DNA of 51,064 nt from a virus. Lineage: Duplodnaviria > Heunggongvirae > Uroviricota > Caudoviricetes. A program made the translations under genes and the position numbers. The notes beneath the pieces were generated by a model. It did not search any database. It was not told where the DNA came from and saw only the letters and a list, made by a program, of their open reading frames with translations. Positions 6,243 through 49,100 of the stretch are shown piece after piece (position 1 is the first letter of the stretch; every line of letters begins with the position of its first letter). The stretch lies in IMG/VR virus record IMGVR_UViG_2534681675_000014, one strand, 5' to 3'.

Positions 6243-6671
6243 TTTTACAAATGAACTTTGTTGATGCGGTGCCTGGTGCCTCCAGGTGACTGCAACCAGT
6301 TAACAATTACAGTCGGCTTTCCCACCCAAACCAATAAGGACTAACATGACTTTTAACTGTGCCACGTGCGCTTAGCCGCATTCACCGCATCACAAAATTC
6401 ACTTTAAAAAGGGCGGACATCAGCCGAACTTCAAGAAAAAAACTGATGCCGCCAGGACTACACACAGCAATGTCGTTATTTACAACCGGAGGCGCACTCC
6501 CACCATTTAAATTTAACAGACAAGACCGACTCTTTATGGATATCGGAAATGCGCCTTCGTGTTGTGCCCGGTTTTATTTCACCACCTCCGGGCTTCGGTG
6601 GTCTCGGCTATACCCCTACAGCGAGAGCTTGTGTTAACATTTCAATACCCTTACAGTTGAGAGTTATTGAT

Positions 6672-7160
6672 ATGTTGGATGTATTTACTCCATTGTTGAA
6701 ACTTTTTGCTAACGAGCCACTCGAAAGACTTATGTATACGATTATCATTTTTGGTCTCACTCTCTGGCTGATACCGAAAGAGTTTACTGTCGCATTCAAT
6801 GCTTATACTGAAATACCTTGGCTCTTTCAGATTATCGTTTTTGCCTTTTCTTTCGTGGTCGCCATTTCCTTCTCAAGATTGCGAGCACATATTCAAAAGC
6901 ATTATTCATTACTACCAGAGCAACGAGTATTGCTTCGTTTATCTGAGAAAGAAATCGCTGTATTTAAAGATTTCCTTAAAACAGGAAATCTTATTATCAC
7001 TTCTCCTTGCCGTAACCCGGTTATGAAAAAATTAGAACGGAAGGGCATCATTCAACATCAGAGTGATAGCGCAAACTGTTCTTATTATCTCGTCACCGAA
7101 AAATACTCCCATTTTATGAAGTTATTCTGGAACAGCAGGAGTAGACGTTTTAATCGTTAG
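6672..7160 (+). CDS. sieB: Superinfection exclusion protein B (inner-membrane)
   Basis: 162-aa product from ATG 6672 (MLDVFTPLLKLFANEPLERL...), hydrophobic segments; only plus-strand gene in the early-left region. Confidence 0.8.
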   Translation: MLDVFTPLLKLFANEPLERLMYTIIIFGLTLWLIPKEFTVAFNAYTEIPWLFQIIVFAFSFVVAISFSRLRAHIQKHYSLLPEQRVLLRLSEKEIAVFKDFLKTGNLIITSPCRNPVMKKLERKGIIQHQSDSANCSYYLVTEKYSHFMKLFWNSRSRRFNR

Positions 7161-11051: not shown

Positions 11052-11408
11052 GTGGAAATAAAACCAGAAGATGAGTTAAGTAATATTGTTTTATTTCCGG
11101 TAAAAGAAGATGATCCACGTAATCAGGTTAATTTTCTTTATGAGCCATCGGAAAGACCATATTGCCATCACGCTTCTGTCCGGGTTGATGAAAAAGAGCG
11201 TCAGGTCCGCTGTAAAATCTGCGGTGCAGTTGTGGAGCCGTTTGACTGGATGCTCTCTGTGGCGAAAAGAGAAAACAGACTGGCAGATAATGTAAGGCTA
11301 TTGCGTCAGGAGGAACGGGAAAGGCGGAAAAATATAGAAAAGCTAATTCAGATTGAGCGTAACGCAAAAGCGCGGATACGCAGAGCGACAAAATCCAGAA
11401 CTGAATAA
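11052..11408 (+). CDS. Hypothetical Cys/His-containing protein (118 aa)
   Basis: GTG 11052 with GGAG 6 nt upstream, 1 nt after previous stop; CHH...CKIC motif suggests a zinc ribbon; ORF track gives a longer 11019 start. Confidence 0.45.
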   Translation: MEIKPEDELSNIVLFPVKEDDPRNQVNFLYEPSERPYCHHASVRVDEKERQVRCKICGAVVEPFDWMLSVAKRENRLADNVRLLRQEERERRKNIEKLIQIERNAKARIRRATKSRTE

Positions 11409-11505
11409 TTAAATTTAGCACTGTTAAAAATTTAATCCTTAACCGGAGGGATTTCTGCACCCTCAGAACATCAGGAGGCCGCCTGAAAGGGCGGTGGAGA
11501 TAATA

Positions 11506-12027
11506 ATGGGAATAACTAAAGAACGATTGTTGGAAATAGCAAACCTTAGTGATTGGGCATTAAGTGATGAGAGAATTATTTCTCCTCATGCTTATGAGTC
11601 AGTTACAAGTATAGAAATAACAACAATGGCTAGAATGCTGCTTGGTTATTTCAAAATAGAAAATAAAAAACAGATGGATAGTAATGTTGATATATGTGAG
11701 ATTTTAGACGATTGGGGGGCTTGGGTTGTGGCTGGTAATAGTTCTATTGATTGGCAGGAAATAGCTGATAAATATAAAAATGTTGTTCCTCATGGTAAAA
11801 AATCACGTCGTCAGTGCAGCAATGATGAAGGGCGAGTTATTGACATTAGTATCCTTAGGTTAGAAAGATATAAGCAACAAGAATATGAGTTAATTGTTGC
11901 TCATTTTGTGATTGGTTTATCTCTTCGTGCTATTGCAAAGCAACAAGGATGTTCAGATGGAACAATTCGTAAAAGATTGCAAAAAGCCTTAGGTTTTTTG
12001 ACTGGATATATAGCAATTACCAGTTAA
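11506..12027 (+). CDS. Q-family antiterminator-like protein (QuuD/933W-Q-like), paralog 1
   Basis: 173 aa from ATG 11506 (GGTGGAG SD); motifs DDWGAWVV, KSRRQCSNDEG, LIVAHFVIGLSLRAIAKQQGCSDGTIRKRLQKA align with recalled DLP12 QuuD sequence. Confidence 0.6.
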   Translation: MGITKERLLEIANLSDWALSDERIISPHAYESVTSIEITTMARMLLGYFKIENKKQMDSNVDICEILDDWGAWVVAGNSSIDWQEIADKYKNVVPHGKKSRRQCSNDEGRVIDISILRLERYKQQEYELIVAHFVIGLSLRAIAKQQGCSDGTIRKRLQKALGFLTGYIAITS

Positions 12028-12665
12028 GAGTCAGCGGGTTTTTTACCAGTGTAATGGTATAAGGATACTCCCATGTGTCTTACATGATATGGAAGCGCTG
12101 TTGCTGGATGCTTTGTGATACTCTTAAAGCGGAGGGGAGAGCCTTCCGCTTCAATTTCTGCGTCCGAAACGGTCGTAGAGAAAAATTCTTTCCATTCATT
12201 GAATTTTACTGCTGATTTGTCAGACTTTATATAAATTAGAATTCCTCCATGATCGTCACGTGACGTACCCGTGCCGTAACGTTCGGTTAGCTGAATCCAG
12301 CCATTATGAATAGATTTGGGGCCTCTCCATAATTTTGCTTCACCGATCCATTCGAATTTTCCGAATTGATGTTTAACTAATAAATCAACGTGACCGCCAT
12401 GTTGAGTATCATGTTCAACATCATAAAACCTACCTTTCAGGAAATTTTTGATCGACGCTGTTAGCTCGTCCTCTCCCCACTTAGCATCTTGATAGAAGTG
12501 TTTGTCATTTTCTAAATTCTGAATAGCGTCGTCTAAATCTTCATAGAGTTGCTTTACAAAAATATTTTTGTCTGCAGCTAATTTTCTTTGAACCATTCCC
12601 CTAAATTCAGGATCCATTCTAATTAATGATTGAAGGTCTGCAGTACAGATGTTTACATCACTCAT
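12024..12665 (-). CDS. Hypothetical protein with PD-(D/E)xK-like nuclease motif (213 aa), operon gene 3
   Basis: ATG 12665 with GGAGAG SD; motif GHVDLLV...FEWIGEAK; stop overlaps the Q-paralog-1 stop; AT-rich. Confidence 0.55.
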   Translation of the reverse strand: MSDVNICTADLQSLIRMDPEFRGMVQRKLAADKNIFVKQLYEDLDDAIQNLENDKHFYQDAKWGEDELTASIKNFLKGRFYDVEHDTQHGGHVDLLVKHQFGKFEWIGEAKLWRGPKSIHNGWIQLTERYGTGTSRDDHGGILIYIKSDKSAVKFNEWKEFFSTTVSDAEIEAEGSPLRFKSITKHPATALPYHVRHMGVSLYHYTGKKPADS

Positions 12666-13086
12666 GCAGACTCTCCAAAAGACTCGAAGGAGTAAAGTAT
12701 GGATAAAGATACTGGCTAAAATTATCAACCAATTCGCCAGTTTCTGGATGGTAAAAACTTCCTGTGTCTAAAGCATAGGAAATAAGATCATCTTCAACTG
12801 GTATTGGTTCTTCCGTTAAATTATCAATGTATTGAAAATGCATATCCAATAGATGTGCTTTATAGCTAGATAAATAATCAGTTGCTTTTATTAGCAGGAT
12901 ATAGTCATCTTTCGTATCAGTTAGATAGGTCAAACCATTGATAAGGGTTTTGTATGTAAAGTGATTGATATTTTTAGCATCTTTACTAACCAGAAAAAGA
13001 AAAAGATCACGACACACACTGCGAACAGGATCATTAAAATCCTGCTCTATTTGCGTGATAATGTCGTGATATATACTCTTTTTCAT
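12658..13086 (-). CDS. Hypothetical acidic protein (142 aa), operon gene 2
   Basis: ATG overlaps upstream gene stop (ATGA at 13083..13086); stop 2 nt before gene 3 start; AT-rich. Confidence 0.5.
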   Translation of the reverse strand: MKKSIYHDIITQIEQDFNDPVRSVCRDLFLFLVSKDAKNINHFTYKTLINGLTYLTDTKDDYILLIKATDYLSSYKAHLLDMHFQYIDNLTEEPIPVEDDLISYALDTGSFYHPETGELVDNFSQYLYPYFTPSSLLESLHE

Positions 13087-14174
13087 TTATGGCCTGATGA
13101 TCTCGCTCTTCTTTTCTCTTCACAGGACTTAACAGAATCCAATATTTTTTCAACAATAAATATAATCGAATCAATGTTGTTACAGTTCTTCGCAATTGCC
13201 TCATGCAACCTAATTCTAGGATTATCAAGCATTGTCCTTTTCCCTGGTAATATTAACTCTACTGATAAAATATGTGAAGAACTTTGTGGTAAATCCCAAA
13301 TTTTTCCCAACTTAAACTTTGTCAATATTGGGCTTGCGGACTCTCCACTATGATGGTAAACATCTTGACGCAAACACTTTTGACTTGGTTTGAGTTTTAA
13401 AGAACTTGTATTGCCATCTGAGGTGATAAAAGATACATGAGAAATTCTGCCATCTACTTTCTCGTAAAGATCTTGTATTGAACCAAATAATTCAAGAGGA
13501 TTGTTTAAAATAACGCCAGCTTCTTTTTTTATAAAATTAGCCACAAGGTATTGTTGAGGCTGTGATTCACTTCTTGGAAGGATAGATAAATCAATCGTAA
13601 GAATTAATATTTTTTCTGCAGGCATTAGCATGATGGTATTAAAGCATTGCGTGACTTGGCGTGTTTTGCATTTTATTTCTCCACCATTAGCACGTAATTC
13701 CATACCCGCATCGCTAAGATGTGTTGGGTCAAGCTCTATCACTTCAGTGTAATACGCTTTGGATAAAAAAACAGCAGTGTCAATTTGTTTATCACGAATG
13801 ATATCTTGACGTAGTTCAGCAAAATGCAGCTCAGTATCAGCAACTAACAGCTCCTCTCTGGATAAAGGAGTTGGGTATTTTTCTGAGAAGGGGCTATTGT
13901 CCTTTTTCTGATTTGTGAAAATTGTTTGTAATTTTGCTACGTCTTCATCGGTGATTCTATAAATAGAAAGTAATCGATTCCCGCTAAAAATTAAACCTTT
14001 CCAGAAATCGTCGATTCTGTCTTTTAGGTCGGGATTATGCTGAACTACACTATTTACACGTTCAATAAAAAGGGGTAATCCTTGGGCCGTTACACCCAGT
14101 GATGAACCAAGAAGCTTACGGGTGTTGCGCCAGCCAAAGCGTGAATTGATGTTTTTTACTGTTTGCTCAAGCAT
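13083..14174 (-). CDS. Hypothetical protein (363 aa), operon gene 1
   Basis: ATG 14174 preceded by AAGGAAG SD (ORF track alternative GTG at 14180); AT-rich; no family recognised. Confidence 0.55.
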   Translation of the reverse strand: MLEQTVKNINSRFGWRNTRKLLGSSLGVTAQGLPLFIERVNSVVQHNPDLKDRIDDFWKGLIFSGNRLLSIYRITDEDVAKLQTIFTNQKKDNSPFSEKYPTPLSREELLVADTELHFAELRQDIIRDKQIDTAVFLSKAYYTEVIELDPTHLSDAGMELRANGGEIKCKTRQVTQCFNTIMLMPAEKILILTIDLSILPRSESQPQQYLVANFIKKEAGVILNNPLELFGSIQDLYEKVDGRISHVSFITSDGNTSSLKLKPSQKCLRQDVYHHSGESASPILTKFKLGKIWDLPQSSSHILSVELILPGKRTMLDNPRIRLHEAIAKNCNNIDSIIFIVEKILDSVKSCEEKRRARSSGHK

Positions 14175-14462
14175 TAACACTTCCTTAATTTTCCCTTAAC
14201 AATTTAGGGTGCTAAACTTTTTTGCGCAGTTTACACAAAAAAATAGTGCGTACGCAAAAACTATCTAACATGATGAGCTTTAACCGGGAAACTTGTATAT
14301 GTTGTGAGCATAAAGTTGGCTGAGAAATCTAAAACGGGTAGAATGACTGCGGGTGCTTGAGGCTATCTGCCTCGGGCATGAACACCAAAGGCAGATAGAG
14401 AAAAGCCCCAGTTAACATTACGCGTCCTGCAAGACGCTTAACATTAATCTGAGGCCAATTTC

Positions 14463-14675
14463 ATGCTTTGCACAAGTAGGTTAGCCTCTTACGTGCCGAA
14501 AGGCAAGGAGAAGCAGGCTATGAAGCAGCAAAAGGCGATGTTAATCGCCATGATCGTCATCTGTTTAACCGTCATAGTGACGGCACTGGTAACGAGGAAA
14601 GACCTCTGCGAGGTGCGAATCCGAACCGGCCAGACGGAGGTCGCTGTCTTCGTAGACTACGAATCTAGAGAGTAA
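14463..14675 (+). CDS. Mok-like in-frame leader reading frame of the hok locus (70 aa)
   Basis: In-frame N-terminal extension of the Hok-like toxin, as in mok/hok loci. Confidence 0.5.
   Translation: MLCTSRLASYVPKGKEKQAMKQQKAMLIAMIVICLTVIVTALVTRKDLCEVRIRTGQTEVAVFVDYESRE
14520..14675 (+). CDS. hok: Hok/Gef-family type I toxin (51 aa)
   Basis: MKQQKAMLIAMIVICLTVIVTALVTRKDLCEVRIRTGQTEVAVF recalled as Hok family; AAGGAG SD; stable hairpin downstream (14681..14707). Confidence 0.8.
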   Translation: MKQQKAMLIAMIVICLTVIVTALVTRKDLCEVRIRTGQTEVAVFVDYESRE

Positions 14676-15744: not shown

Positions 15745-16034
15745 TGGTGGATTTACGTAAAGCGGCGCGGGGGCAGATGTGCACCGTCAGAATTCCTGGC
15801 TACTGCAATCACGATCCGGAAACGTCTGTGCTGGCGCATTACCGACTGGCGGGAACGTGCGGAATAACGACAAAACCACACGATATGCAGGCGGCGATTG
15901 CCTGTAGCTCATGCCACGATCTAATCGACGGGCGGGTAAAAACCAGCGATTACACCAAAGAAGAATTACGCCTGATGCATGCAGAAGGTGTTTTTCGCAC
16001 ACAAGAAATCTGGAGAAAGGAGGGATATTTGTGA
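15744..16034 (+). CDS. YbcO-like Cys/His-rich nin-region protein (putative nuclease)
   Basis: 96 aa; Cys/His pattern CTVRIPGYCNH...CSSCHD; length and position match DLP12 YbcO as recalled. Confidence 0.6.
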   Translation: MVDLRKAARGQMCTVRIPGYCNHDPETSVLAHYRLAGTCGITTKPHDMQAAIACSSCHDLIDGRVKTSDYTKEELRLMHAEGVFRTQEIWRKEGYL

Positions 16035-16573
16035 TTTACCCAACGAATACAGGAAAAAGCGGAGAACACCTTCGTCTCGCCACGCTGGAAAGTGTCTGGA
16101 TTCAGGGCAAACTGCGTATGTGGGGGCGCTGGTCGTATATTGGCGGTGGCAGGTCAGGAAATATGTTCAATCAGTTGTTGGCATCCCAAAAATTGACGAA
16201 AACAGCCATCAATGAAGCCCTGCGCAGAATGAAAAAAGCGGGAATAGAGAAAGCTGAGCTGGAAGCGTTTTTGAGAGAGATGATCAACGGCAAGCAAAAG
16301 AGCTGGCTGGCGCATTGTACTGATGCAGAGGCGTTATGTATTGATCGAGTCATAAGTGAGGTGCTGGCAGAGCATCCAGGATTGATTTGCATTCTCCGGC
16401 AACGCTATGAAGGGCGGGGGATGACTAAGCGTAAAATGGCTGAATTGCTACATGATGCACACCCAGAGTGGTGTTTTAGCACATGCGAAAAACGGATTGC
16501 TAATTGGTTAGCTGTTGCTGAGTATGTCCTATATATTCCCATGCGTGAATCATTTGCTGAGAAAATGGCTTGA
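16031..16573 (+). CDS. Q-family late-gene antiterminator, paralog 2 (likely the functional late activator)
   Basis: GTG 16031 overlapping upstream stop (GTGA), AGGAGGG SD; WGRW motif and Q-like C-terminus; followed by a strong terminator about 85 bp downstream. Confidence 0.55.
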   Translation: MIYPTNTGKSGEHLRLATLESVWIQGKLRMWGRWSYIGGGRSGNMFNQLLASQKLTKTAINEALRRMKKAGIEKAELEAFLREMINGKQKSWLAHCTDAEALCIDRVISEVLAEHPGLICILRQRYEGRGMTKRKMAELLHDAHPEWCFSTCEKRIANWLAVAEYVLYIPMRESFAEKMA

Positions 16574-18782: not shown

Positions 18783-19688
18783 CTATATTTCCAGACATCT
18801 GTTATCACTTAACCCATTACAAGCCCGCTGCCGCAGATATTCCCGTGGCGAGCGATAACCCAGCGCACTATGCGGATGCCATTCGTTATAATGCTCGAAC
18901 GCCTCTGCAAGGTTCTTTGCTGCCGTTAACCCGTCTGGTTTGGGCATGATACTGATGTAGTCACGCTTTATCGTTTTCACGAAGCTCTCTGCTATTCCGT
19001 TACTCTCCGGACTCCGCACCGCCGTGTTCTTCGGTTCAAGTCCCAACATCCGGGCGAACTGGCGTGTTTCATTAGCCCGGTAGCATGAACCATTATCCGT
19101 CAGCCACTCCACTGGAGACGACGGAAGATCGTTGCCGAAGCGGCGTTCCACCGCTCCCAGCATGACGTCCTGTACTGTTTCACTGTTGAAGCCGCCAGTA
19201 GTCACCGCCCAGTGCAGTGCCTCACGATCACAGCAGTCCAGCGCGAACGTGACACGCAGTCTCTCTCCGTTATCACAGCAGAACTCGAACCCGTCAGAGC
19301 ACCATCGCTGATTGCTTTCTTTCACGGCCACTCTGCCTGTATGTGCCCGTTTCGATGGCGGTACAGCAGGTTTTCGCTCAAGCAACAGCGCATTCTGGCG
19401 CATGATCCGGTAAACACGTTTGGCATTGATCGCAGGCATACCATCAAGTTCTGCCTGTCTGCGAAGCAGCGCCCATACCCGACGATAACCATACGTGGGC
19501 AGCTCTCCGATAACATGGTGTATACGGAGAAGCACATCCGTATCATCAGTGTGACGACTGCGGCGGCCATCCATCCAGTCATCGGTTCGTCTGAGAATGA
19601 CGTGCAACTGCGCACGCGACACCCGGAGACAACGGCTGACTAAGCTTACTCCCCATCCCCGGGCAATAAGGGCGCGTGCGCTATCCAC
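18783..19688 (-). CDS. insD: IS2 transposase OrfB (InsD)
   Basis: 301 aa, recalled as IS2 InsD. Confidence 0.9.
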
Positions 19689-22044: not shown

Positions 22045-22181
22045 AATCTTAACTACAATATGATTCATTTTGATGATTGTTTCATAAGGAACAGTGAAGT
22101 AAGATCTAAGAGGAGTTAAATTTTATACAGTATAATCATAATATTGCAGCAAGGTGGTTATAATTGAAAGAATATTTAGAT

Positions 22182-23639
22182 ATGAATACATCTCATGTAA
22201 GAGTTGTTACTCATATGTGTGGGTTCCTGGTTTGGCTCTATAGTCTTTCAATGTTGCCACCAATGGTTGTAGCATTGTTTTATAAAGAAAAAAGCCTGTT
22301 CGTTTTCTTTATAACTTTCGTTATATTTTTTTGCATTGGTGGCGGAGCGTGGTATACAACTAAGAAATCTGGCATTCAATTACGTACCCGTGATGGGTTT
22401 ATTATAATTGTAATGTTTTGGATTTTGTTTTCTGTTATTAGTGCATTCCCTTTATGGATTGACTCAGAACTTAATTTAACGTTCATTGATGCTCTGTTTG
22501 AAGGGGTTTCTGGAATAACAACAACAGGAGCAACTGTAATTGATGATGTTAGTTCATTACCTCGGGCATATTTGTACTATCGGTCACAGTTAAATTTTAT
22601 AGGTGGTTTAGGAGTTATTGTTCTGGCGGTTGCAGTATTGCCATTATTGGGTATTGGTGGTGCAAAGCTTTATCAGTCAGAAATGCCGGGGCCATTTAAG
22701 GATGACAAACTCACTCCCCGCCTGGCCGATACGTCACGGACACTGTGGATAACTTATTCTTTATTAGGTATTGCTTGTATTGTCTGTTATAGACTTGCAG
22801 GAATGCCTTTGTTTGATGCTATTTGTCACGGGATTTCCACAGTTTCGCTTGGTGGTTTCTCAACTCATAGCGAGAGTATCGGATATTTTAATAACTATTT
22901 GGTTGAGCTGGTGGCTGGTGCTTTTTCCCTGCTATCGGCTTTCAACTTTACTCTTTGGTATATTGTTATTAGCAGAAAAACGATAAAACCTTTAATCAGA
23001 GATATTGAACTTCGTTTCTTTCTGTTAATAGCCTTAGGGGTGATCATTGTTACCTCTTTCCAGGTCTGGCATATAGGTATGTATGACTTGCATGGAAGTT
23101 TTATTCATTCGTTTTTTCTTGCCAGCTCCATGCTCACTGATAATGGTTTAGCTACGCAGGATTATGCAAACTGGCCCACGCACACGATAGTGTTTTTGCT
23201 GTTGTCAAGTTTCTTTGGGGGATGTATAGGTTCAACCTGTGGTGGAATTAAGTCACTTCGATTTCTTATACTTTTCAAACAAAGCAAACACGAGATAAAT
23301 CAACTTTCTCATCCCAGAGCGTTGTTGAGTGTAAATGTAGGAGGGAAGATAGTTACAGATCGTGTAATGAGGTCTGTATGGAGTTTCTTTTTTCTTTATA
23401 CTCTCTTCACGGTGTTTTTTATACTGGTGTTAAATGGTATGGGATATGATTTTCTTACATCATTTGCAACAGTGGCTGCATGTATTAATAATATGGGATT
23501 AGGTTTTGGGGCTACTGCATCGTCATTCGGAGTGCTTAATGACATTGCAAAATATTTAATGTGCATAGCTATGATTCTTGGTCGCCTTGAAATTTATCCT
23601 GTTATTATATTGTTTTCAGGTTTTTTTTGGCGCTCCTAA
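22182..23639 (+). CDS. trkG: TrkG potassium uptake protein (Trk/Ktr family membrane protein)
   Basis: 485 aa from MNTSHVRVVTHMCGF..., recalled as Rac TrkG; AT-rich; ORF track offers a TTG start at 22164 with AAGGTGG SD. Confidence 0.9.
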   Translation: MNTSHVRVVTHMCGFLVWLYSLSMLPPMVVALFYKEKSLFVFFITFVIFFCIGGGAWYTTKKSGIQLRTRDGFIIIVMFWILFSVISAFPLWIDSELNLTFIDALFEGVSGITTTGATVIDDVSSLPRAYLYYRSQLNFIGGLGVIVLAVAVLPLLGIGGAKLYQSEMPGPFKDDKLTPRLADTSRTLWITYSLLGIACIVCYRLAGMPLFDAICHGISTVSLGGFSTHSESIGYFNNYLVELVAGAFSLLSAFNFTLWYIVISRKTIKPLIRDIELRFFLLIALGVIIVTSFQVWHIGMYDLHGSFIHSFFLASSMLTDNGLATQDYANWPTHTIVFLLLSSFFGGCIGSTCGGIKSLRFLILFKQSKHEINQLSHPRALLSVNVGGKIVTDRVMRSVWSFFFLYTLFTVFFILVLNGMGYDFLTSFATVAACINNMGLGFGATASSFGVLNDIAKYLMCIAMILGRLEIYPVIILFSGFFWRS

Positions 23640-39980: not shown

Positions 39981-40678
39981 TGCAGGACATACGACAGGAA
40001 ACACTGAATGAATGCATCCGTGTGGAGCAGACGGCCAGCGTGGTGCTCTGGGAAATTGATCTGACAGAGGTCGGTGGGGAGCGTTACTTTTTCTGCAATG
40101 AGCAGAATGAAAAAGGTGAACCGGTTACCTGGCAGGGGCGAAAGTATCAGGCGTACCCCATTCAGGGAAGCGGCTTTGAGATGAACGGTAAGGGCAGCAG
40201 CGCACGTCCCACACTTAAGGTATCTAACCTGTATGGCATGGTCACCGGGATGGCCGAAGACCTGCAGAGTCTGGTCGGCGGAACGGTGGTCAGGCGTAAG
40301 GTTTATGCCCGTTTTCTGGATGCGGTGAACTTCATCAACGGAAACAGCGAAGCCGATCCGGAGCAGGAGGTGATCAGCCGCTGGCGCATCGAGCAGTGCA
40401 GCGAACTGAGCGCGGTCAGTGCCTCTTTTGTACTGTCCACACCGACTGAAACGGATGGTGCCGTTTTTCCGGGGCGCATCATGCTGGCTAATACCTGCAC
40501 CTGGACCTATCGCGGTGATGAGTGCGGTTATAACGGTCCGGTTGTTGCGGATGAATATGACCAGCCGACGTCCGATATCACGAAGGATAAATGCAGCAAA
40601 TGCCTGAGCGGTTGTAAGTTTCGCAATAATGTCGGCAACTTTGGCGGCTTCCTTTCCATTAACAAACTTTCGCAGTAA
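39980..40678 (+). CDS. Minor tail protein L (lambda gpL-like)
   Basis: 232 aa; ATGA overlap with M stop; Cys cluster near C-terminus. Confidence 0.85.
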   Translation: MQDIRQETLNECIRVEQTASVVLWEIDLTEVGGERYFFCNEQNEKGEPVTWQGRKYQAYPIQGSGFEMNGKGSSARPTLKVSNLYGMVTGMAEDLQSLVGGTVVRRKVYARFLDAVNFINGNSEADPEQEVISRWRIEQCSELSAVSASFVLSTPTETDGAVFPGRIMLANTCTWTYRGDECGYNGPVVADEYDQPTSDITKDKCSKCLSGCKFRNNVGNFGGFLSINKLSQ

Positions 40679-40683
40679 ATCCC

Positions 40684-41427
40684 ATGACACAGACAGAATC
40701 AGCGATTCTGGCGCACGCCCGGCGATGTGCGCCAGCGGAGTCGTGCGGCTTCGTGGTGAGAGCGCCGGAGGGGGAAAGATATTTTCCCTGCGTGAATATT
40801 TCCGGTGAGCCGGAGGATTATTTCCGGATGGCTCCGGAGGACTGGCTGCAGGCAGAAATGCAGGGTGAGATTGTGGCGCTGGTCCACAGCCACCCCGGTG
40901 GTCTGCCCTGGCTGAGTGAGGCCGACCGGCGGCTGCAGGTGCAGAGTGATTTGCCGTGGTGGCTGGTCTGCCGGGGGACGATTCATAAGTTCCGCTGTGT
41001 GCCGCATCTCACCGGGCGGCGCTTTGAGCACGGGGTGACGGACTGTTACACGCTGTTCCGGGATGCTTATCATCTGGCGGGGATTGAGATGCCGGATTTT
41101 CATCGCGAGGATGACTGGTGGCGTCACGGTCAGAATCTCTATCTGGATAATCTGGAGGCCACAGGGCTGTATCAGGTGCCGTTGTCATCAGCACAACCGG
41201 GCGATGTGCTGCTGTGCTGTTTTGGTTCATCGGTGCCGAATCATGCCGCCATTTACTGTGGTGATGGCGAGCTGCTGCACCATATTCCTGAACAACTGAG
41301 CAAACGAGAGAGGTATACCGACAAATGGCAGCGACGCACACACTCCCTCTGGCGTCACCGGGCATGGCGCGCATCTGCCTTTACGGGGATTTGCAACGAT
41401 TTGGCCGCCGCATCGACCTTCGTGTGA
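40684..41427 (+). CDS. Tail tip assembly protein K (lambda gpK-like)
   Basis: 247 aa; HSHP metal site of the JAB/MPN domain; lambda order. Confidence 0.85.
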   Translation: MTQTESAILAHARRCAPAESCGFVVRAPEGERYFPCVNISGEPEDYFRMAPEDWLQAEMQGEIVALVHSHPGGLPWLSEADRRLQVQSDLPWWLVCRGTIHKFRCVPHLTGRRFEHGVTDCYTLFRDAYHLAGIEMPDFHREDDWWRHGQNLYLDNLEATGLYQVPLSSAQPGDVLLCCFGSSVPNHAAIYCGDGELLHHIPEQLSKRERYTDKWQRRTHSLWRHRAWRASAFTGICNDLAAASTFV

Positions 41428-41972
41428 AAACGGGGGCCGAAGCCATCCGGGCGCTGGCCACACAGCTCCCGGCGTTTCGTCAGAAACTGAATGAGGGCTG
41501 GTATCAGGTGCGCATTGTCGGGCGTGATGCAGGAGAAAATGAATTATCTGCCCGTCTTAATGAGCCGCTGGCAAATGGTGCCGTGATCCACATTGTGCCG
41601 CGTCTGGCGGGAGCTAAAAGTGGCGGTGTTTTTCAGGCAGTGCTGGGTGCGGCGCTGATTGCGGTGGCATGGTGGAACCCTGTGGGCTGGCTGGGTGCCG
41701 CGGCTGTATCGGGCATGTATGCGGCAGGGGCCAGTATGATCCTGGGCGGTGTGGCTCAGATGCTGGCACCGAAAGCCAGAACTCCCCGCACACAGACAAC
41801 GGATAACGGTAAGCAGAACACCTATTTCTCCTCACTGGATAACATGGTTGCCCAGGGCAATGTTCTGCCGGTTCTGTACGGTGAAATGCGCGTGGGGTCA
41901 CGGGTGATTTCTCAGGAGATCAGCACGGCAGATGAAGGAGATGGTGGTCAGGTTGTGGTGATTGGTCGCTGA
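41325..41972 (+). CDS. Tail assembly protein I (lambda gpI-like)
   Basis: 215 aa MAATHTLPLASPGMARICLYGDLQRFGRR...; overlaps the K 3-prime end. Confidence 0.8.
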   Translation: MAATHTLPLASPGMARICLYGDLQRFGRRIDLRVKTGAEAIRALATQLPAFRQKLNEGWYQVRIVGRDAGENELSARLNEPLANGAVIHIVPRLAGAKSGGVFQAVLGAALIAVAWWNPVGWLGAAAVSGMYAAGASMILGGVAQMLAPKARTPRTQTTDNGKQNTYFSSLDNMVAQGNVLPVLYGEMRVGSRVISQEISTADEGDGGQVVVIGR

Positions 41973-42032
41973 TGCAGAATGTTTTGTGTGAAACCGCCTG
42001 CGGGCGGTTTTGTCGTTTATGGAGCGTGAGGA

Positions 42033-45000
42033 ATGGGTAAAGGCAGCAGTAAGGGACATACCCCGCGTGAAGCGAGGGACAACCTGAAGTCCACGCAGTT
42101 GCTGAGTGTGATCGATGCCATCAGTGAAGGGCCGATTGAAGGTCCGGTGGACGGATTAAAAAGTGTGCTGCTGAACAGTACGCCAGTGCTGGACAGTGAG
42201 GAGAATACCAATATCTCCGGTGTCACGGTGGTTTTCCGGGCAGGTGAGCAGGAGCAGACACCGCCGGAGGGATTTGAATCCTCCGGCTCCGAGACGGTGC
42301 TGGGTACGGAAGTGAAGTACGACACGCCGATTACCCGGACCATCACGTCTGCAAACATCGACCGTCTGCGCTTTACCTTCGGTGTGCAGGCACTGGTGGA
42401 AACCACCTCAAAGGGGGACCGGAATCCGTCGGAAGTCCGCCTGCTGGTTCAGATACAGCGTAACGGTGGCTGGGTGACGGAAAAAGACATCACCATTAAG
42501 GGCAAAACCACCTCGCAGTATCTGGCCTCGGTGGTGGTGGATAACCTGCCGCCGCGCCCGTTTAATATCCGGATGCGCAGGATGACGCCGGACAGCGCCA
42601 CAGACCAGCTGCAGAACAAAACGCTCTGGTCGTCATACACAGAAATCATCGATGTGAAACAGTGCTACCCGAACACGGCACTGGTCGGCGTGCAGGTGGA
42701 CTCGGAGCAGTTCGGCAGCCAGCAGGTGAGCCGTAATTATCATCTTCGCGGGCGCATTCTGCAGGTGCCGTCGAACTATAACCCGCAGACGCGGCAATAC
42801 AGCGGTATCTGGGACGGAACGTTTAAGCCAGCATACAGCAACAACATGGCCTGGTGTCTGTGGGATATGCTGACCCATCCGCGCTACGGCATGGGGAAAC
42901 GTCTTGGTGCAGCAGATGTGGATAAATGGACGCTGTATGTCATCGGCCAGTACTGCGACCAGTTGGTACCGAATGGTTTTGGCGGCACGGAGCCGCGCAT
43001 CACCTGTAATGCCTGGCTGACCACACAGCGTAAGGCGTGGGATGTGCTCAGCGATTTCTGCTCGGCGATGCGCTGTATGCCGGTATGGAACGGGCAGACT
43101 CTGACGTTCGTGCAGGACCGACCGTCGGATAAGGTGTGGACCTATAACCGCAGTAATGTGGTGATGCCGGATGATGGCGCGCCGTTCCGCTACAGCTTCA
43201 GCGCCCTGAAGGACCGCCATAATGCCGTTGAGGTGAACTGGATTGACCCGAACAACGGCTGGGAGACGGCGACAGAGCTTGTTGAAGATACGCAGGCCAT
43301 TGCCCGTTACGGTCGTAATGTCACGAAGATGGATGCCTTTGGCTGTACCAGCCGGGGGCAGGCACACCGCGCCGGGCTGTGGCTGATTAAAACGGAACTG
43401 CTGGAGACGCAGACCGTGGATTTCAGCGTGGGTGCTGAAGGGCTTCGCCATGTACCGGGCGATGTCATTGAAATCTGCGATGATGACTATGCCGGTATCA
43501 GCATCGGCGGGCGCGTGCTGGCGGTAAACAGCCAGACCCGGACGCTGACGCTCGACCGTGAAATCACTCTGCCATCCTCCGGTACCACGCTGATAAGCCT
43601 GGTTGACGGAAGTGGCAATCCGGTCAGCGTGGAGGTTCAGTCCGTCACCGACGGCGTGAAGGTGAAAGTGAGCCGTGTTCCTGACGGCGTTGCTGAATAC
43701 AGCGTGTGGGGGCTGAAGCTGCCGACGCTGCGCCAGCGCCTGTTCCGCTGCGTGAGTATCCGTGAGAACGACGACGGCACGTATGCCATCACCGCCGTGC
43801 AGCATGTACCGGAAAAAGAAGCCATCGTGGATAACGGGGCGCACTTTGACGGCGACCAGAGCGGCACGGTGAATGGTGTCACGCCGCCAGCGGTGCAGCA
43901 CCTGACCGCCGAAGTCACCGCAGACAGCGGGGAATATCAGGTGCTGGCGCGCTGGGACACGCCGAAGGTGGTGAAGGGCGTGAGCTTCCTGCTCCGTCTG
44001 ACCGTAACAGCGGATGACGGCAGTGAGCGGCTGGTCAGCACGGCCCGGACGACGGAAACCACATACCGCTTCAGGCAGCTGGCGCTGGGAAATTACAGGC
44101 TGACAGTCCGGGCGGTAAATGCATGGGGACAGCAGGGCGATCCTGCATCGGTATCGTTCCGGATCGCCGCACCGGCAGCGCCGTCGCGGATTGAGCTGAC
44201 GCCGGGCTATTTTCAGATAACCGCCACGCCGCATCTTGCCGTTTATGACCCGACGGTACAGTTTGAGTTCTGGTTCTCGGAAAAGCGGATTACCGATATC
44301 AGGCAGGTTGAAACCACAGCCCGCTATCTTGGTACGGCGCTGTACTGGATAGCCGCCAGTATCAATATCAAACCGGGCCATGATTATTACTTTTATATCC
44401 GCAGTGTGAACACCGTTGGCAAATCGGCATTCGTGGAGGCCGTCGGTCGGGCGAGCGATGATGCGGAAGGTTACCTGGATTTTTTCAAAGGCAAGATAAC
44501 CGAATCCCATCTCGGCAAGGAGCTGCTGGAAAAAGTCGAGCTGACGGAGGATAACGCCAGCAGACTGGAGGAGTTTTCGAAAGAGTGGAAGGACGCCAAC
44601 GATAAGTGGAATGCCATGTGGGCTGTCAAAATTGAGCAGACCAAAGACGGCAAACATTATGTCGCGGGTATTGGCCTCAGCATGGAGGACACGGAGGAAG
44701 GCAAACTGAGTCAGTTTCTGGTTGCCGCTAACCGTATCGCATTTATTGACCCGGCAAACGGGAATGAAACGCCGATGTTTGTGGCGCAGGGCAATCAGAT
44801 ATTCATGAACGACGTGTTCCTGAAGCGCCTGACGGCCCCCACCATTACCAGTGGTGGCAGTCCTCCGGTATTTTCCCTGACATCAGACGGAAAGCTGACC
44901 GCTAAAAATGCGGATATCAGTGGCAGTGTGAATGCGAACTCAGGAACGCTCAACAATGTCACGATTAACCAGAACTGTACGATTAAGGGCATGCTGGAGG

Positions 45001-45446
45001 CGACCCAGGTCAGAGGAGATTTCGTTAAAGCTGTATCAAAAGCCTTCCCGAAAAAAGTCGGTACGTGGGGTAACACGGAAACACCAGACGGTACGGTTAC
45101 AGTCACCATCAGCGATGATCATAACTTTGACCGCCAGATTATTATTCCGCCCATTATTTTTAACGGTATAGCGTATGACGATCCGGGGAGCGGAAATAAC
45201 CCAGGAGGCACGCGATACACGGGTTATGGTTTTGAAGTTCGCAAAAACGGCGTATTAATCGCATCCAGAGAAACTAAAGGGGCCATTCCCGGTAGTTACA
45301 GTGCAGTTATTGATATGCCTAGTGGTGGTGGTAGCGTCACTCTGGAGTTTAAGATTTTCCAGAAAGGCAATCAGGGGGCAGGCAATATCACCGACTGTAC
45401 GGTGATTGTGACCAAAAAAGCTGCTTCCGGCATCAGTATTCGTTGA
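42033..45446 (+). CDS. Tail tip / host specificity protein J
   Basis: 1137 aa; lambda J-like length and position. Confidence 0.9.
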
Positions 45447-45468
45447 AATATTTATAACCCCAATAAAG

Positions 45469-45492
45469 GGCGTCAGGAATGACGCCTTTTTT
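45469..45492 (+). terminator. Rho-independent terminator after J
   Basis: ggcgtca-ggaa-tgacgcc then T6. Confidence 0.6.
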
Positions 45493-45516
45493 ATTGCAGA
45501 AAAGCGAGAGGTAATT

Positions 45517-46116
45517 ATGCGTAAAGTTTGTGCAGCAATTTTGTCCGCAGCCATTTGTCTGGCCGTATCCGGTGCGCCTGCATGGGCGTCTGAACATCAG
45601 TCCACGCTGAGCGCGGGGTATCTTCATGCCTCGACGAACGTCCCCGGCAGTGATGATCTGAACGGGATTAACGTGAAATACCGTTATGAGTTTACGGATA
45701 CGTTGGGGCTGGTGACGTCATTCAGCTATGCAGGAGACAAGAATCGCCAGCTGACCCGTTACAGCGATACCCGCTGGCATGAAGATTCCGTTCGTAACCG
45801 CTGGTTCAGCGTAATGGCGGGGCCGTCTGTGCGCGTGAATGAATGGTTCAGCGCGTATGCGATGGCGGGTGTGGCTTACAGACGTGTGTCGACTTTCTCC
45901 GGGGATTATCTCCGCGTAACTGACAACAAGGGGAAAACGCACGATGTGCTGACCGGAAGTGATGACGGTCGCCACAGCAACACGTCTCTGGCGTGGGGAG
46001 CTGGCGTGCAGTTTAACCCGACCGAATCCGTGGCCATTGATATTGCTTATGAAGGCTCCGGCAGTGGCGACTGGCGCACTGACGGTTTCATCGTGGGTGT
46101 CGGTTATAAATTCTGA
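45517..46116 (+). CDS. lom: Lom-like outer-membrane beta-barrel protein (Ail/Lom family)
   Basis: 199 aa with signal peptide; C-terminus DIAYEGSGSGDWRTDGFIVGVGYKF matches lambda Lom as recalled. Confidence 0.85.
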   Translation: MRKVCAAILSAAICLAVSGAPAWASEHQSTLSAGYLHASTNVPGSDDLNGINVKYRYEFTDTLGLVTSFSYAGDKNRQLTRYSDTRWHEDSVRNRWFSVMAGPSVRVNEWFSAYAMAGVAYRRVSTFSGDYLRVTDNKGKTHDVLTGSDDGRHSNTSLAWGAGVQFNPTESVAIDIAYEGSGSGDWRTDGFIVGVGYKF

Positions 46117-46141
46117 TTAGCCAGGTAACACAGTGTTATGA

Positions 46142-46170
46142 CAGCCCGCCGGTTCAGGCGGGCTTTTTTG
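46142..46170 (+). terminator. Rho-independent terminator after lom
   Basis: cagcccgcc-ggttca-ggcgggct then T6. Confidence 0.6.
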
Positions 46171-46180
46171 TGGGGTGAAT

Positions 46181-49100
46181 ATGGCAGTAAAGATTTCAGG
46201 TGTACTGAAAGACGGCACAGGAAAACCGGTACAGAACTGCACAATCCAGCTGAAAGCAAAACGTAACAGCACCACGGTGGTGGTGAACACGCTGGCCTCA
46301 GAAAATCCGGATGAAGCCGGGCGTTACAGCATGGACGTTGAGTACGGTCAGTACAGCGTTATTCTGTTGGTGGAAGGATTCCCGCCGTCACATGCCGGGA
46401 CCATCACCGTGTATGAAGATTCCCAACCCGGTACGCTGAATGATTTTCTCGGTGCCATGACGGAGGATGATGCCCGTCCTGAGGCACTGCGCCGTTTTGA
46501 ACTGATGGTGGAAGAGGTGCGCGTAACGCGTCTGCGGTGGCACAGAACACGGCAGCCGCGAAGAAGTCAGCCGGCGATGCCAGCACATCAGCCCGTGAGG
46601 CGGCAACCCATGCGACTGATGCTGCAGGCTCAGCACGCGCAGCCAGCACGTCAGCCGGACAGGCCGCGTCGTCGGCTCAGTCAGCGTCTTCCAGCGCAGG
46701 AACGGCATCAACAAAGGCCACTGAAGCGGAAAAAAGTGCTGCCGCTGCAGAGTCCTCAAAAAGCGCGGCGGCCACCAGTGCCGCTGCGGCGAAAACGTCA
46801 GAAACGAATGCGGCAGCGTCACAACAATCAGCAGCCACTTCTGCATCCACCGCGACCACGAAAGCGTCAGAAGCTGCCACCTCAGCCCGGGATGCGTCGG
46901 CTTCAAAAGAGGCGGCAAAATCATCAGAAACGAGCGCAGCCTCGAGCGCCAGCAGCGCAGCTTCCTCGGCAACGGCGACAGCAAATTCTGCGAAGGCGGC
47001 AAAAACGTCCGAGACGAACGCTAAGTCTTCTGAAACGGCAGCGGGACAGAGTGCCTCAGCTGCGGCAGGCTCAAAAACAGCGGCTGCGTCGTCTGCCAGT
47101 GCAGCGTCAACAAGTGCCGGGCAGGCCTCAGCCAGTGCTAGCGCCGCCGGTAAATCGGCAGAAAGCGCCGCATCGTCCGCTTCAACAGCCACAACGAAGG
47201 CTGGCGAAGCCACTGAACAGGCCAGTGCAGCAGCGAGGTCTGCTTCCGCAGCGAAGACATCCGAGACGAACGCGAAAGCGTCGGAAACCAGCGCAGAATC
47301 CTCAAAAACGGCTGCCGCATCGTCCGCCAGTTCGGCGGCGTCATCGGCATCATCGGCGTCTGCTTCAAAAGATGAGGCGACCAGACAAGCGTCCGCAGCG
47401 AAGGGCAGCGCCACGACAGCATCCACGAAGGCGACAGAGGCAGCTGGCAGTGCGACGGCGGCAGCACAGAGCAAAAGTACGGCGGAATCTGCAGCAACGC
47501 GCGCTGAGACAGCGGCAAAACGGGCAGAGGATATTGCATCCGCCGTGGCGCTTGAGGATGCGAGCACGACGAAAAAGGGGATAGTACAGCTCAGTAGTGC
47601 GACTAACAGCACTTCCGAGTCACTGGCGGCAACACCAAAAGCCGTTAAGGCCGCGTATGACCTGGCTAACGGGAAATACACCGCACAGGATGCAACGACA
47701 GCACAGAAAGGGATAATCCAGCTAAGCAGCGCGACCAACAGCACGTCTGAAACGCTTGCCGCGACACCAAAGGCAGTAAAAACAGCCTATGACAATGCTG
47801 AGAAACGTCTGCAGAAAGATCAGAACGGTGCGGATATCCCTGGCAAAGACACCTTTACGAAAAATATTGGTGCCTGCCGTGCCTTTGGTGGGTCAGTAAG
47901 CACAATAACAGGAAACTGGACGACTGCACAGTTTATCGAGTGGCTGGATTCTCAGGGAGCATTTAACCATCCCTACTGGATGTGCAAGGGTTCCTGGTCT
48001 TATGGCAATAATAAAATCATTACTGATACTGACTGCGGTAATATTCATCTCGCCGGAGCTGTCATTGAAGTAATGGGGATAAAGTCAGCGATGACGATCC
48101 GCATTACCACACCGACCACCTCCACTGGTGGTGGAACAACTAACGCCCAGTTTACCTATATTAATCACGGAACAGATTATTCACCTGGCTGGCGAAGGGA
48201 CTATAACTCCAGAAATAAGCCAACGGCATCAGAGATCGGGGCGTTACCGTCAGGTGGAACAGCAGTATCATCAGTTAATCTGTCTTCAAAAGGTCGGGTA
48301 ACCGCGCTGACAGACAATACACAGGGGGCAACAGGTCTTGAGTTATACGAGGTGTATAACAACGGATATCCAACAGCGTATGGAAATATCATTCACCTGA
48401 AAGGGATGACAGCCGTTGGCGAAGGTGAGTTACTCATCGGCTGGAGTGGTACAAGCGGTGCTCATGCTCCGGCATTTATTCGTTCACGACGGGATACGAC
48501 CGACGCAAACTGGTCGCCGTGGGCGCAGCTTTACACCTCGGCTCATCCTCCTGCAGAGTTTTATCCAGTCGGTGCACCAATCCCGTGGCCATCAGATACC
48601 GTTCCGTCTGGCTATGCCCTGATGCAGGGGCAGACTTTTGACAAATCTGCATACCCGAAACTTGCAGCGGCTTATCCGTCAGGCGTGATCCCTGATATGC
48701 GTGGCTGGACGATTAAGGGCAAACCTGCCAGTGGTCGGGCCGTATTGTCTCAGGAACAGGACGGCATTAAATCGCATACCCACAGCGCCAGCGCATCCAG
48801 TACGGATTTGGGGACGAAAACCACATCGTCGTTTGATTACGGCACTAAATCCACGAATAACACTGGTGCGCATACCCATAGTTTAAGTGGTAGCACGAAT
48901 GCAGCTGGTAATCACAGCCATAGAGATGGCCGTCGATTTAACCCCAGTGTTTTTAAAGATACTTATCAATATGGTTATACAAGCTCAGGTCAAAATACCT
49001 GGGGTGTACAAGGCTCAGTAGGTATGTCTACGGGGTGGTTAGCTAATACCAGTACAGATGGTAATCATAGCCACTCACTGTCCGGCACAGCAGCATCTGC

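Follow-up and report, generated by a model that had tools for sequence, protein, structure and literature searches.

A divergent relative of the DS-21 defence cassette, with a predicted BamHI-like nuclease, in a Rac-like prophage

DS-21, cloned from an Escherichia coli strain by DeWeirdt, Mahoney and Laub (Science 2026; PMC13092281, April 2026), is a three-gene system that the supplementary tables of that paper list under the working id TOXO, in the category 'predicted novel defense gene', with defensive and replicated both entered as TRUE (Tables S6 and S8). Its proteins are given in Table S8 as DS-21A (WP_001532221.1, 365 amino acids, aa), DS-21B (WP_021552536.1, 140 aa) and DS-21C (WP_001557682.1, 211 aa). 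According to the screen data of the paper, DS-21 lowered the plating of Bas1 by 4.5 log (approximately 10^4.5-fold) and that of Bas11 by 2 log (approximately 100-fold), and the plaques of Bas3, Bas9, Bas67 and T3 were smaller. Its domain table holds a weak HeH/SAP call for DS-21A (0.64), HHpred assignments of DS-21B to DUF5939 (0.94) and a winged helix (0.8) and, for DS-21C, a DpnII-MboI-type PD-(D/E)xK domain (0.96) and 'LmuA_effector_PDDEXK' at probability 94.7. Here we describe a related cassette of three genes, g1, g2 and g3, on the minus strand of a 51,064-nucleotide (nt) stretch of viral DNA (Caudoviricetes; IMG/VR record IMGVR_UViG_2534681675_000014). This whole stretch is referred to as the window, and positions are counted from its first letter.

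The link to DS-21 was found by searching the supplementary tables of PMC13092281 for conserved peptides; the trio of locus L002, from another E. coli prophage, is printed there verbatim. In BLASTP alignments, g1 was 51% identical to DS-21A over 359 aa (E 5e-140), g2 was 54% identical to DS-21B over 136 aa (E 2e-53), and g3 was 60% identical to DS-21C over 208 aa (E 1e-91). Both cassettes comprise three genes in the same A-B-C order, with sizes of 365/140/211 aa in DS-21 and 363/142/213 aa here, carry the same PD-(D/E)xK residues, and are tightly coupled as one transcription unit, in our case through an ATGA overlap and an 8-nt overlap. Both also lie antisense in a lambdoid prophage and converge on a Q-family gene (PF06530), the two Q proteins being 37% identical. 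The two differ in three respects. They are distinct subtypes with no match at the DNA level; the cassette of the window lies between a Q-like gene and hokD in a Rac-like prophage, whereas DS-21 lies between Q and the holin gene; and they occur in different strains, in 14 and 12, respectively, of 5,426 complete E. coli genomes. As far as sequences tell, the cassette appears to be a divergent copy of DS-21 that has every DS-21 feature testable here, and it would be a new, second and well-diverged subtype of a family for which a role in defence was published in 2026. We consider it probable that the cassette is a DS-21 family member with a defence role and a nuclease effector.

An earlier note on this DNA had proposed an anti-phage defence or exclusion module. 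The homology to DS-21A, DS-21B and DS-21C in the same order argues for that proposal, as does other cargo found at the same site, some of it with PADLOC defence matches. The note had also called the operon unrecognised. This holds for Pfam, NCBIfam and the 2023 PADLOC models, which gave no significant match for g1, g2 or g3, but not for the literature, in which a homologue was described as a validated system in April 2026. The sole PADLOC-DB 2.0 (2023) match, of g3 to PDC-S54 over 63 residues around the catalytic motif, was not significant (E 0.0016). In PHROGs, matches were limited to three families, all of unknown function, and searches of PDB sequences with single proteins and with family profiles returned no match for the cassette proteins. 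The cassette and its surroundings are laid out as follows.

14174..13083, minus strand: g1, 363 aa from its ATG; DS-21A homologue, taken to be the sensor or DNA-binding subunit
13086..12658, minus strand: g2, 142 aa, small and acidic; DS-21B homologue, taken to be the nuclease adaptor or inhibitor
12665..12024, minus strand: g3, 213 aa; DS-21C homologue and predicted PD-(D/E)xK nuclease, taken to be the effector
14175..14350, minus strand: region upstream of g1, as far as the hok/sok RNA element; presumed own promoter of the cassette
11494..12027, plus strand: convergent Q-family antiterminator gene (PF06530, E 1.3e-31); left boundary, given as context and outside the system
14351..14675, plus strand: hok/sok type I toxin-antitoxin locus (Rfam RF01794, 111 bits; PF01848 Hok/Gef, E 3.9e-22); right boundary, given as context
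15911..16573: DUF1133/Q-like gene in the flank beyond hok/sok

Most of the anatomy drawn in the earlier note was borne out. The list of open reading frames (ORFs) and the reverse-strand sequence place three minus-strand ORFs of 363, 142 and 213 aa where it had them, the g1 stop and the g2 start are joined in ATGA (13086..13083) as described, and the setting beside a Hok toxin and between two Q-family genes is supported by matches to PF06530, Rfam RF01794 and DUF1133/Q-like. The claim that g3 starts 2 nt after g2 was wrong: the g3 ATG (12665..12663) lies within the end of g2, and the two genes share 8 nt (ATGAGTGA). Of the good Shine-Dalgarno sequences assigned to every gene, those of g1 (AAGGAAG) and g3 (GGAGAG) stand, each 5 nt before the ATG, but g2 has no good one of its own, and its translation relies on the ATGA coupling. 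A GTG lies two codons upstream of the g1 ATG; the Shine-Dalgarno spacer would not fit it. At the other end, the palindrome TTAA at 12024..12027 is the common stop of g3 and the convergent Q-family gene, and a pattern scan found no terminator-like hairpin after g3 on the minus strand, in agreement with the stop-on-stop arrangement noted before.

The RefSeq annotation of E2348/69 and CFIAFB20190172 starts g3 further in, at an internal Met, so that the protein has 197 aa and a gap of 40 nt separates its gene from g2 (window 12617..12665; L001 7188..7229). This annotation is probably too short: the start that gives 213 aa is preceded by a Shine-Dalgarno sequence, shares 8 nt with g2 and agrees with where all homologues begin. 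No paper searched contained the RefSeq accessions of the cassette proteins of E2348/69. All three ORFs are real genes rather than chance ORFs, since each has full-length homologues down to approximately 20-30% identity in several bacterial orders.

Full-length homologues of g3 formed 45 clusters and those of g1 formed 32, as compared to 7 for g2, which is fast-evolving. A profile search with g1 reached 498 clusters (at 50% identity), 288 of them with E up to 1e-10; their lengths were approximately 340-390 aa, and there were no fusions. The trio was found in a different lambdoid prophage of E. coli, where it lies between the Q and holin genes (L002-L005), in a Vibrio parahaemolyticus island adjoining rpoD, with an integrase (L006), in a Photobacterium island (L009), in a metagenomic phage (L012), and on plasmids of Pseudomonas, the cyanobacterium Calothrix, and Moritella (L019-L021). 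In seven of these loci (L002, L006, L009, L012, L019, L020 and L021), the g1-g2-g3 order was identical, gene sizes were similar, and all three proteins could be aligned. We counted this conservation as a unit, in one order from E. coli to a cyanobacterial plasmid, in favour of the defence-family reading.

Nine distinct locus types were examined, and in eight of them the large subunit, g1, was conserved alongside g2-g3. A relative without g1, at L014 (4743..6630), consists of two genes, in which a 423-aa protein lies directly upstream of a g3 homologue. The C-terminal 70 residues of the 423-aa protein resemble the g2 C-terminus, and its N-terminal part is unrelated to g1. Because L014 thus fuses a g2-like domain to a different N-terminal region next to a g3 homologue, the g2-like domain and g3 look like a constant core, which suggests that sensors may be exchanged on it.

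The base composition also sets the cassette apart. Its G+C content is 0.368, as compared to 0.472 for the window and 0.567 for the structural genes (40000..47500); the earlier note had pointed out the contrast with the structural genes. Only 2.1% of equally long stretches were as low in G+C, all of them within 11400..14200, the minimum of the whole window; the Q-family gene at 11494..12027 is at 0.343. The 14 genomes that carry the window-type cassette include enteropathogenic E. coli (EPEC) E2348/69, an O145 strain and several Shiga toxin-producing E. coli (STEC) strains; all copies were at least 99.5% identical, and their proteins are annotated as hypothetical throughout. That the cassette is low in G+C, rare and near-identical where present was likewise counted for the defence-family reading. 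In several STEC strains, an insertion sequence (IS) element, IS421, lies beside, not within, the cassette. Among the phage genomes of INPHARED, no DNA match to the cassette was found, and the INPHARED proteins gave just one weak partial match, in an Acinetobacter phage. By these searches, the cassette would be an element seen in prophages and not in sequenced virions.

The evidence for a nuclease is centred on g3. The earlier note had recognised a PD-(D/E)xK pattern, and the motif GHVDLLV...FEWIGEAK is indeed present. In 28 g3 homologues, down to 27% identity, E65, D66, H85, G91, H92, D94, W106, I107, G108, E109, A110, K111 and Q125 were invariant, D94, E109 and K111 of the pattern among them. 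The catalytic residues E65, D66, D94, E109 and K111 were also kept in all eight trios compared (to 26% identity). An AlphaFold2 (AF2) model of g3 was confident (predicted local distance difference test, pLDDT, 90.1; predicted template modelling score, pTM, 0.86) and places these residues on a helix (65-78) and two strands (91-98 and 105-112) of a predicted restriction-endonuclease-like alpha-beta-beta-beta-alpha-beta fold. The best structural matches of the model were type II restriction enzymes (the BamHI/BglII/BstYI/OkrAI group) and McrC. Based on this model, g3 is predicted to be a BamHI/BglII-like PD-(D/E)xK nuclease. Some distant homologues (L012 6001..6723, L019 3968..4696 and L021 3932..4678) have Lys/Ala-rich, histone-H1-like tails, such as AAKKTAAKK repeats, with weak PF07382 matches; the E. 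coli and Vibrio versions lack them. DNA is presumably the substrate of g3, as such tails would fit.

Sequence identity between g3 and the BamHI/BglII/BstYI/OkrAI group is 8-14%, and g3 comes without a methyltransferase and with two obligatory partner genes that those enzymes lack. A type II restriction-modification system was rejected as an identity for the cassette, no methyltransferase domain being present in g1, g2 or the flanking genes. Lamassu was considered for its likeness in having three genes including a PD-(D/E)xK effector (LmuA, with the SMC-like ATPase LmuB and LmuC). It differs in that g1 and g2 have neither an SMC/ABC ATPase nor a P-loop, and was rejected on finding no ATPase domain in Pfam or NCBIfam and no PADLOC Lmu match for any of the three proteins.

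For g1, the comparison of interest is with RdgC and lambda RexA. A 2024 crystal structure paper reports that lambda RexA is of the RdgC/Iml3/Chl4 fold class, which it describes as DNA-binding dimers for RexA, Iml3 and Chl4, that the RexA dimer binds DNA non-specifically, and that RexA biases the lambda switch (PMC11077077). No Pfam match was found for g1 or for 47 diverse relatives, and none places it in the RdgC family, PF04381. Nevertheless, RdgC was the top structural match of the g1 model by two independent methods, and no other fold matched. The fold of g1 is accordingly predicted, from its model, to be of the RdgC/RexA/Iml3/Chl4 class. As compared to E. coli RdgC (PDB 2OWL), g1 carries additional elements, namely a region of four helices at the N-terminus and a long helix at the C-terminus; it shows no detectable sequence relationship to RdgC and belongs to a mobile trio. 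The most conserved stretch of g1 spans residues 263-285 (approximately 13320..13388, minus strand; CLRxDxYHxxGE...), in which H274 and G277 are nearly invariant in the 47 relatives; it may be an interface or ligand loop. With lambda RexAB, the cassette has in common that it is prophage-encoded, presumably expressed in the lysogen, and that g1 is predicted to be of the same fold class as the RexA crystal structure. RexAB itself was rejected as an identity, as there is no sequence similarity and no RexB-like partner, the partners being a 142-aa acidic protein and a nuclease (no transmembrane scan was made).

We infer the roles of g1 and g2, the DNA substrate, the trigger and the order of events to be as follows. 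The cassette would have a promoter of its own and be transcribed antisense to the late-regulatory genes of the phage. The g1 protein would be the sensor, its RdgC/RexA/Iml3 fold being one that forms DNA-binding dimers in known proteins. Made in step with g3 through the overlapping reading frames, g2 would link g1 to g3, probably holding the nuclease inactive until g1 registers infection. As the DNase effector, g3 would then cut DNA, and phage replication would stop. Taken alone, this specific wiring of sensor, adaptor and effector is tentative, and we give it somewhat less than even credence. In a narrower form, which we hold to be doubtful, the DS-21 family would be a Rex-type sensor wired to a nuclease: a g1 dimer of RdgC/RexA fold would detect a phage intermediate, either DNA or protein-DNA, and release the BamHI-like DNase through g2. 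The g1 loop 263-285 (H274, G277) and W293 would then be the switch or interface.

Several observations weigh against membership in a defence family or against this mechanism. The window variant is just 51-60% identical to DS-21 and may differ in phage range or be inactive, and the main text of PMC13092281 contains no discussion of DS-21 or its mechanism. A simple scan of the minus-strand region 14175..14350 did not find a consensus-grade sigma-70 site. The global template modelling score (TM-score) between the g1 model and RdgC was just 0.28-0.32, a likeness at the fold level only. Similarly, g1 profiles aligned with hhalign to E. coli RdgC at a probability below 1 and to lambda RexA at a probability of 0.2, which is to say that neither comparison revealed sequence similarity, so that any relationship would be one of structure alone. 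Across the family, the net charge of g1 ranged from -18 to +11, which does not suggest conserved non-specific DNA binding. Finally, the conserved stretch 263-285 was the sole segment of the AF2 model below pLDDT 50 and was not placed. The upstream regions of the two E. coli subtypes, that of the window and that of DS-21, showed little conservation and no common conserved element.

The same structural matches also allow a restriction of phage DNA without a methylase, in which a g1-g2-g3 complex would recognise a feature of the incoming DNA (free ends, structure or modification) and cut it directly, the host cell being spared. The type II enzymes and McrC at the head of the g3 matches, a predicted g1 fold that is that of the DNA-encircling RdgC, and the lack of a methyltransferase are all consistent with such a complex, and the 4.5-log reduction in Bas1 plating by DS-21 is of a kind that direct immunity often produces. 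Nothing shows how self DNA would be spared, however; the narrow phage range in the DS-21 screen fits a specific trigger equally well, and the charge of g1 is not conserved. We regard direct restriction as somewhat unlikely.

The properties of g2 bear on a different explanation. A g2 homologue was present in every trio examined, and the protein was acidic in all eight trios compared, with isoelectric points of 4.3-5.4. HMMER searches gave no Pfam or PDB sequence match for g2. The published HHpred link of DS-21B to DUF5939 was not reproduced by Pfam scans of g2 relatives, and we found no mention of DUF5939 in the literature. A small, acidic protein coupled to a nuclease gene by an 8-nt overlap, and forming with it what looks like a constant pair, could be a direct antitoxin. 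The cassette would then be mainly an addiction module of the toxin-antitoxin kind, with g3 as a toxic nuclease, that stabilises the prophage, and defence would be a side effect of antitoxin loss on infection. Its position next to another toxin-antitoxin locus, hok/sok, and its occurrence on plasmids are in keeping with this. A third, larger gene conserved in eight of nine locus types is nevertheless unusual for a plain two-part toxin-antitoxin system, the g1-g2-g3 order is fixed, and the homologue DS-21 protects against specific phages from a plasmid. Overall, an addiction module seems improbable as the main function, and we retain the DS-21-type defence system as the preferred explanation.

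The surroundings of the cassette are those of a prophage whose backbone appears Rac-like by gene content. In the window, the backbone includes RecT, a RecE-sized gene, SieB, a CI-type repressor, Rz and a trkG-like gene, and the nearest annotated relative of the prophage contains recE, recT, kilR, sieB and ydaT. To the right of the cassette, hok/sok (the Rfam sok model spans 14351..14525) is followed by DUF1367, YbcO and the DUF1133/Q-like gene, one of two Q-like genes in the window (11494..12027 and 15911..16573). The Q-family protein encoded at 11494..12027 has an N-terminal extension of approximately 65 aa relative to the Q protein beside DS-21 (37% identity over 106 aa).

The earlier note had assigned the cassette to a prophage cargo position, and a comparison of site occupancy agreed with this. 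In related prophages, the same flanks are kept and different antisense genes lie upstream of hokD:

L016, 1750..3385, antisense: pair with PADLOC matches to cll and PD-Lambda-2_C/beta (PD-Lambda-2/gop-beta-cll-like)
L017, 2136..3545, antisense: DUF6731 protein and a 159-aa protein, with no PADLOC match; candidate
L018, 1681..3014, antisense: two other hypothetical proteins, with no PADLOC match; candidate

L017 keeps the Q-family gene of the left boundary, with other cargo beside it. In Rac-like prophages, the position upstream of hokD thus stands out as an exchange site for defence cargo, which makes it worth mining for further systems.

Other features of the prophage are recorded for context. 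A SieB superinfection-exclusion gene lies in the immunity region (6549..7160, plus strand; PF14163, E 3e-31), so that the prophage has at least two putative anti-phage functions, the cassette and SieB, besides hok/sok. Between the Q region and the lysis genes there is an IS3-family transposase ORF (18783..19688, minus strand; rve, HTH_21). Just past Rz, a 491-aa TrkH-family gene (22164..23639, plus strand; PF02386, E 2e-144) with a local G+C content of 0.32-0.40 looks like the trkG cargo of Rac-type prophages and a second low-G+C insertion in the window. In the nearest annotated relative, two toxin gene pairs flank the lysis genes downstream of the Q region (L022, 17652..21364): a scabin-related ADP-ribosyltransferase with an AB5 binding subunit, and an enterotoxin A/B pair. 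The DNA of the window differs there.

The location of the cassette also raises a role in the life cycle of the prophage itself, for example as a RexA-like modulator of the lysis-lysogeny switch or as a recombination accessory. The lambda switch is biased by RexA (PMC11077077), which has the fold class predicted for g1, and in each of the two E. coli subtypes the cassette faces a convergent Q-family gene. The trio, however, is not restricted to prophages and was also found in chromosomal islands and on plasmids, in hosts ranging from Vibrio to cyanobacteria, the homologue DS-21 protects when cloned alone, and other cargo replaces the cassette at its site; a function confined to the prophage is thus very unlikely. 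An inactive remnant, its genes decaying or intact by chance and without present function in the strain, would account for the lack of a detectable promoter and for a backbone that resembles a defective Rac-type prophage with an IS element elsewhere, but is scarcely credible given three reading frames that are full-length relative to homologues, the retention of every invariant residue, and at least 99.5% identity in 14 genomes of unrelated pathotypes.

A DS-21-type defence system, which we prefer to these alternatives, provides a second subtype for a defence family that had been represented by one screen entry, and one that is carried by model pathogens (EPEC E2348/69 and several STEC strains). 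The family is now defined more fully than in the published table, by its spread, its invariant catalytic residues, approximately 500 clusters of a large subunit without Pfam cover, and an acidic middle protein. Some points appear to be new relative to the available parts of PMC13092281: the large subunit is predicted to have an RdgC/RexA-type fold, the middle protein is acidic, there is a variant of two genes, and the family extends to a plasmid of a cyanobacterium. The fold assignment suggests a testable mechanism. If the Rex-type sensor proposed above is correct, the cassette would be a soluble, tractable system for finding out what is recognised by this sensor fold when a phage infects, which is also a question for lambda RexA. 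Defence is in itself an unsurprising function for a cassette that is low in G+C, antisense and located at a cargo site of a prophage; the family is an entry point to a poorly understood sensor fold.

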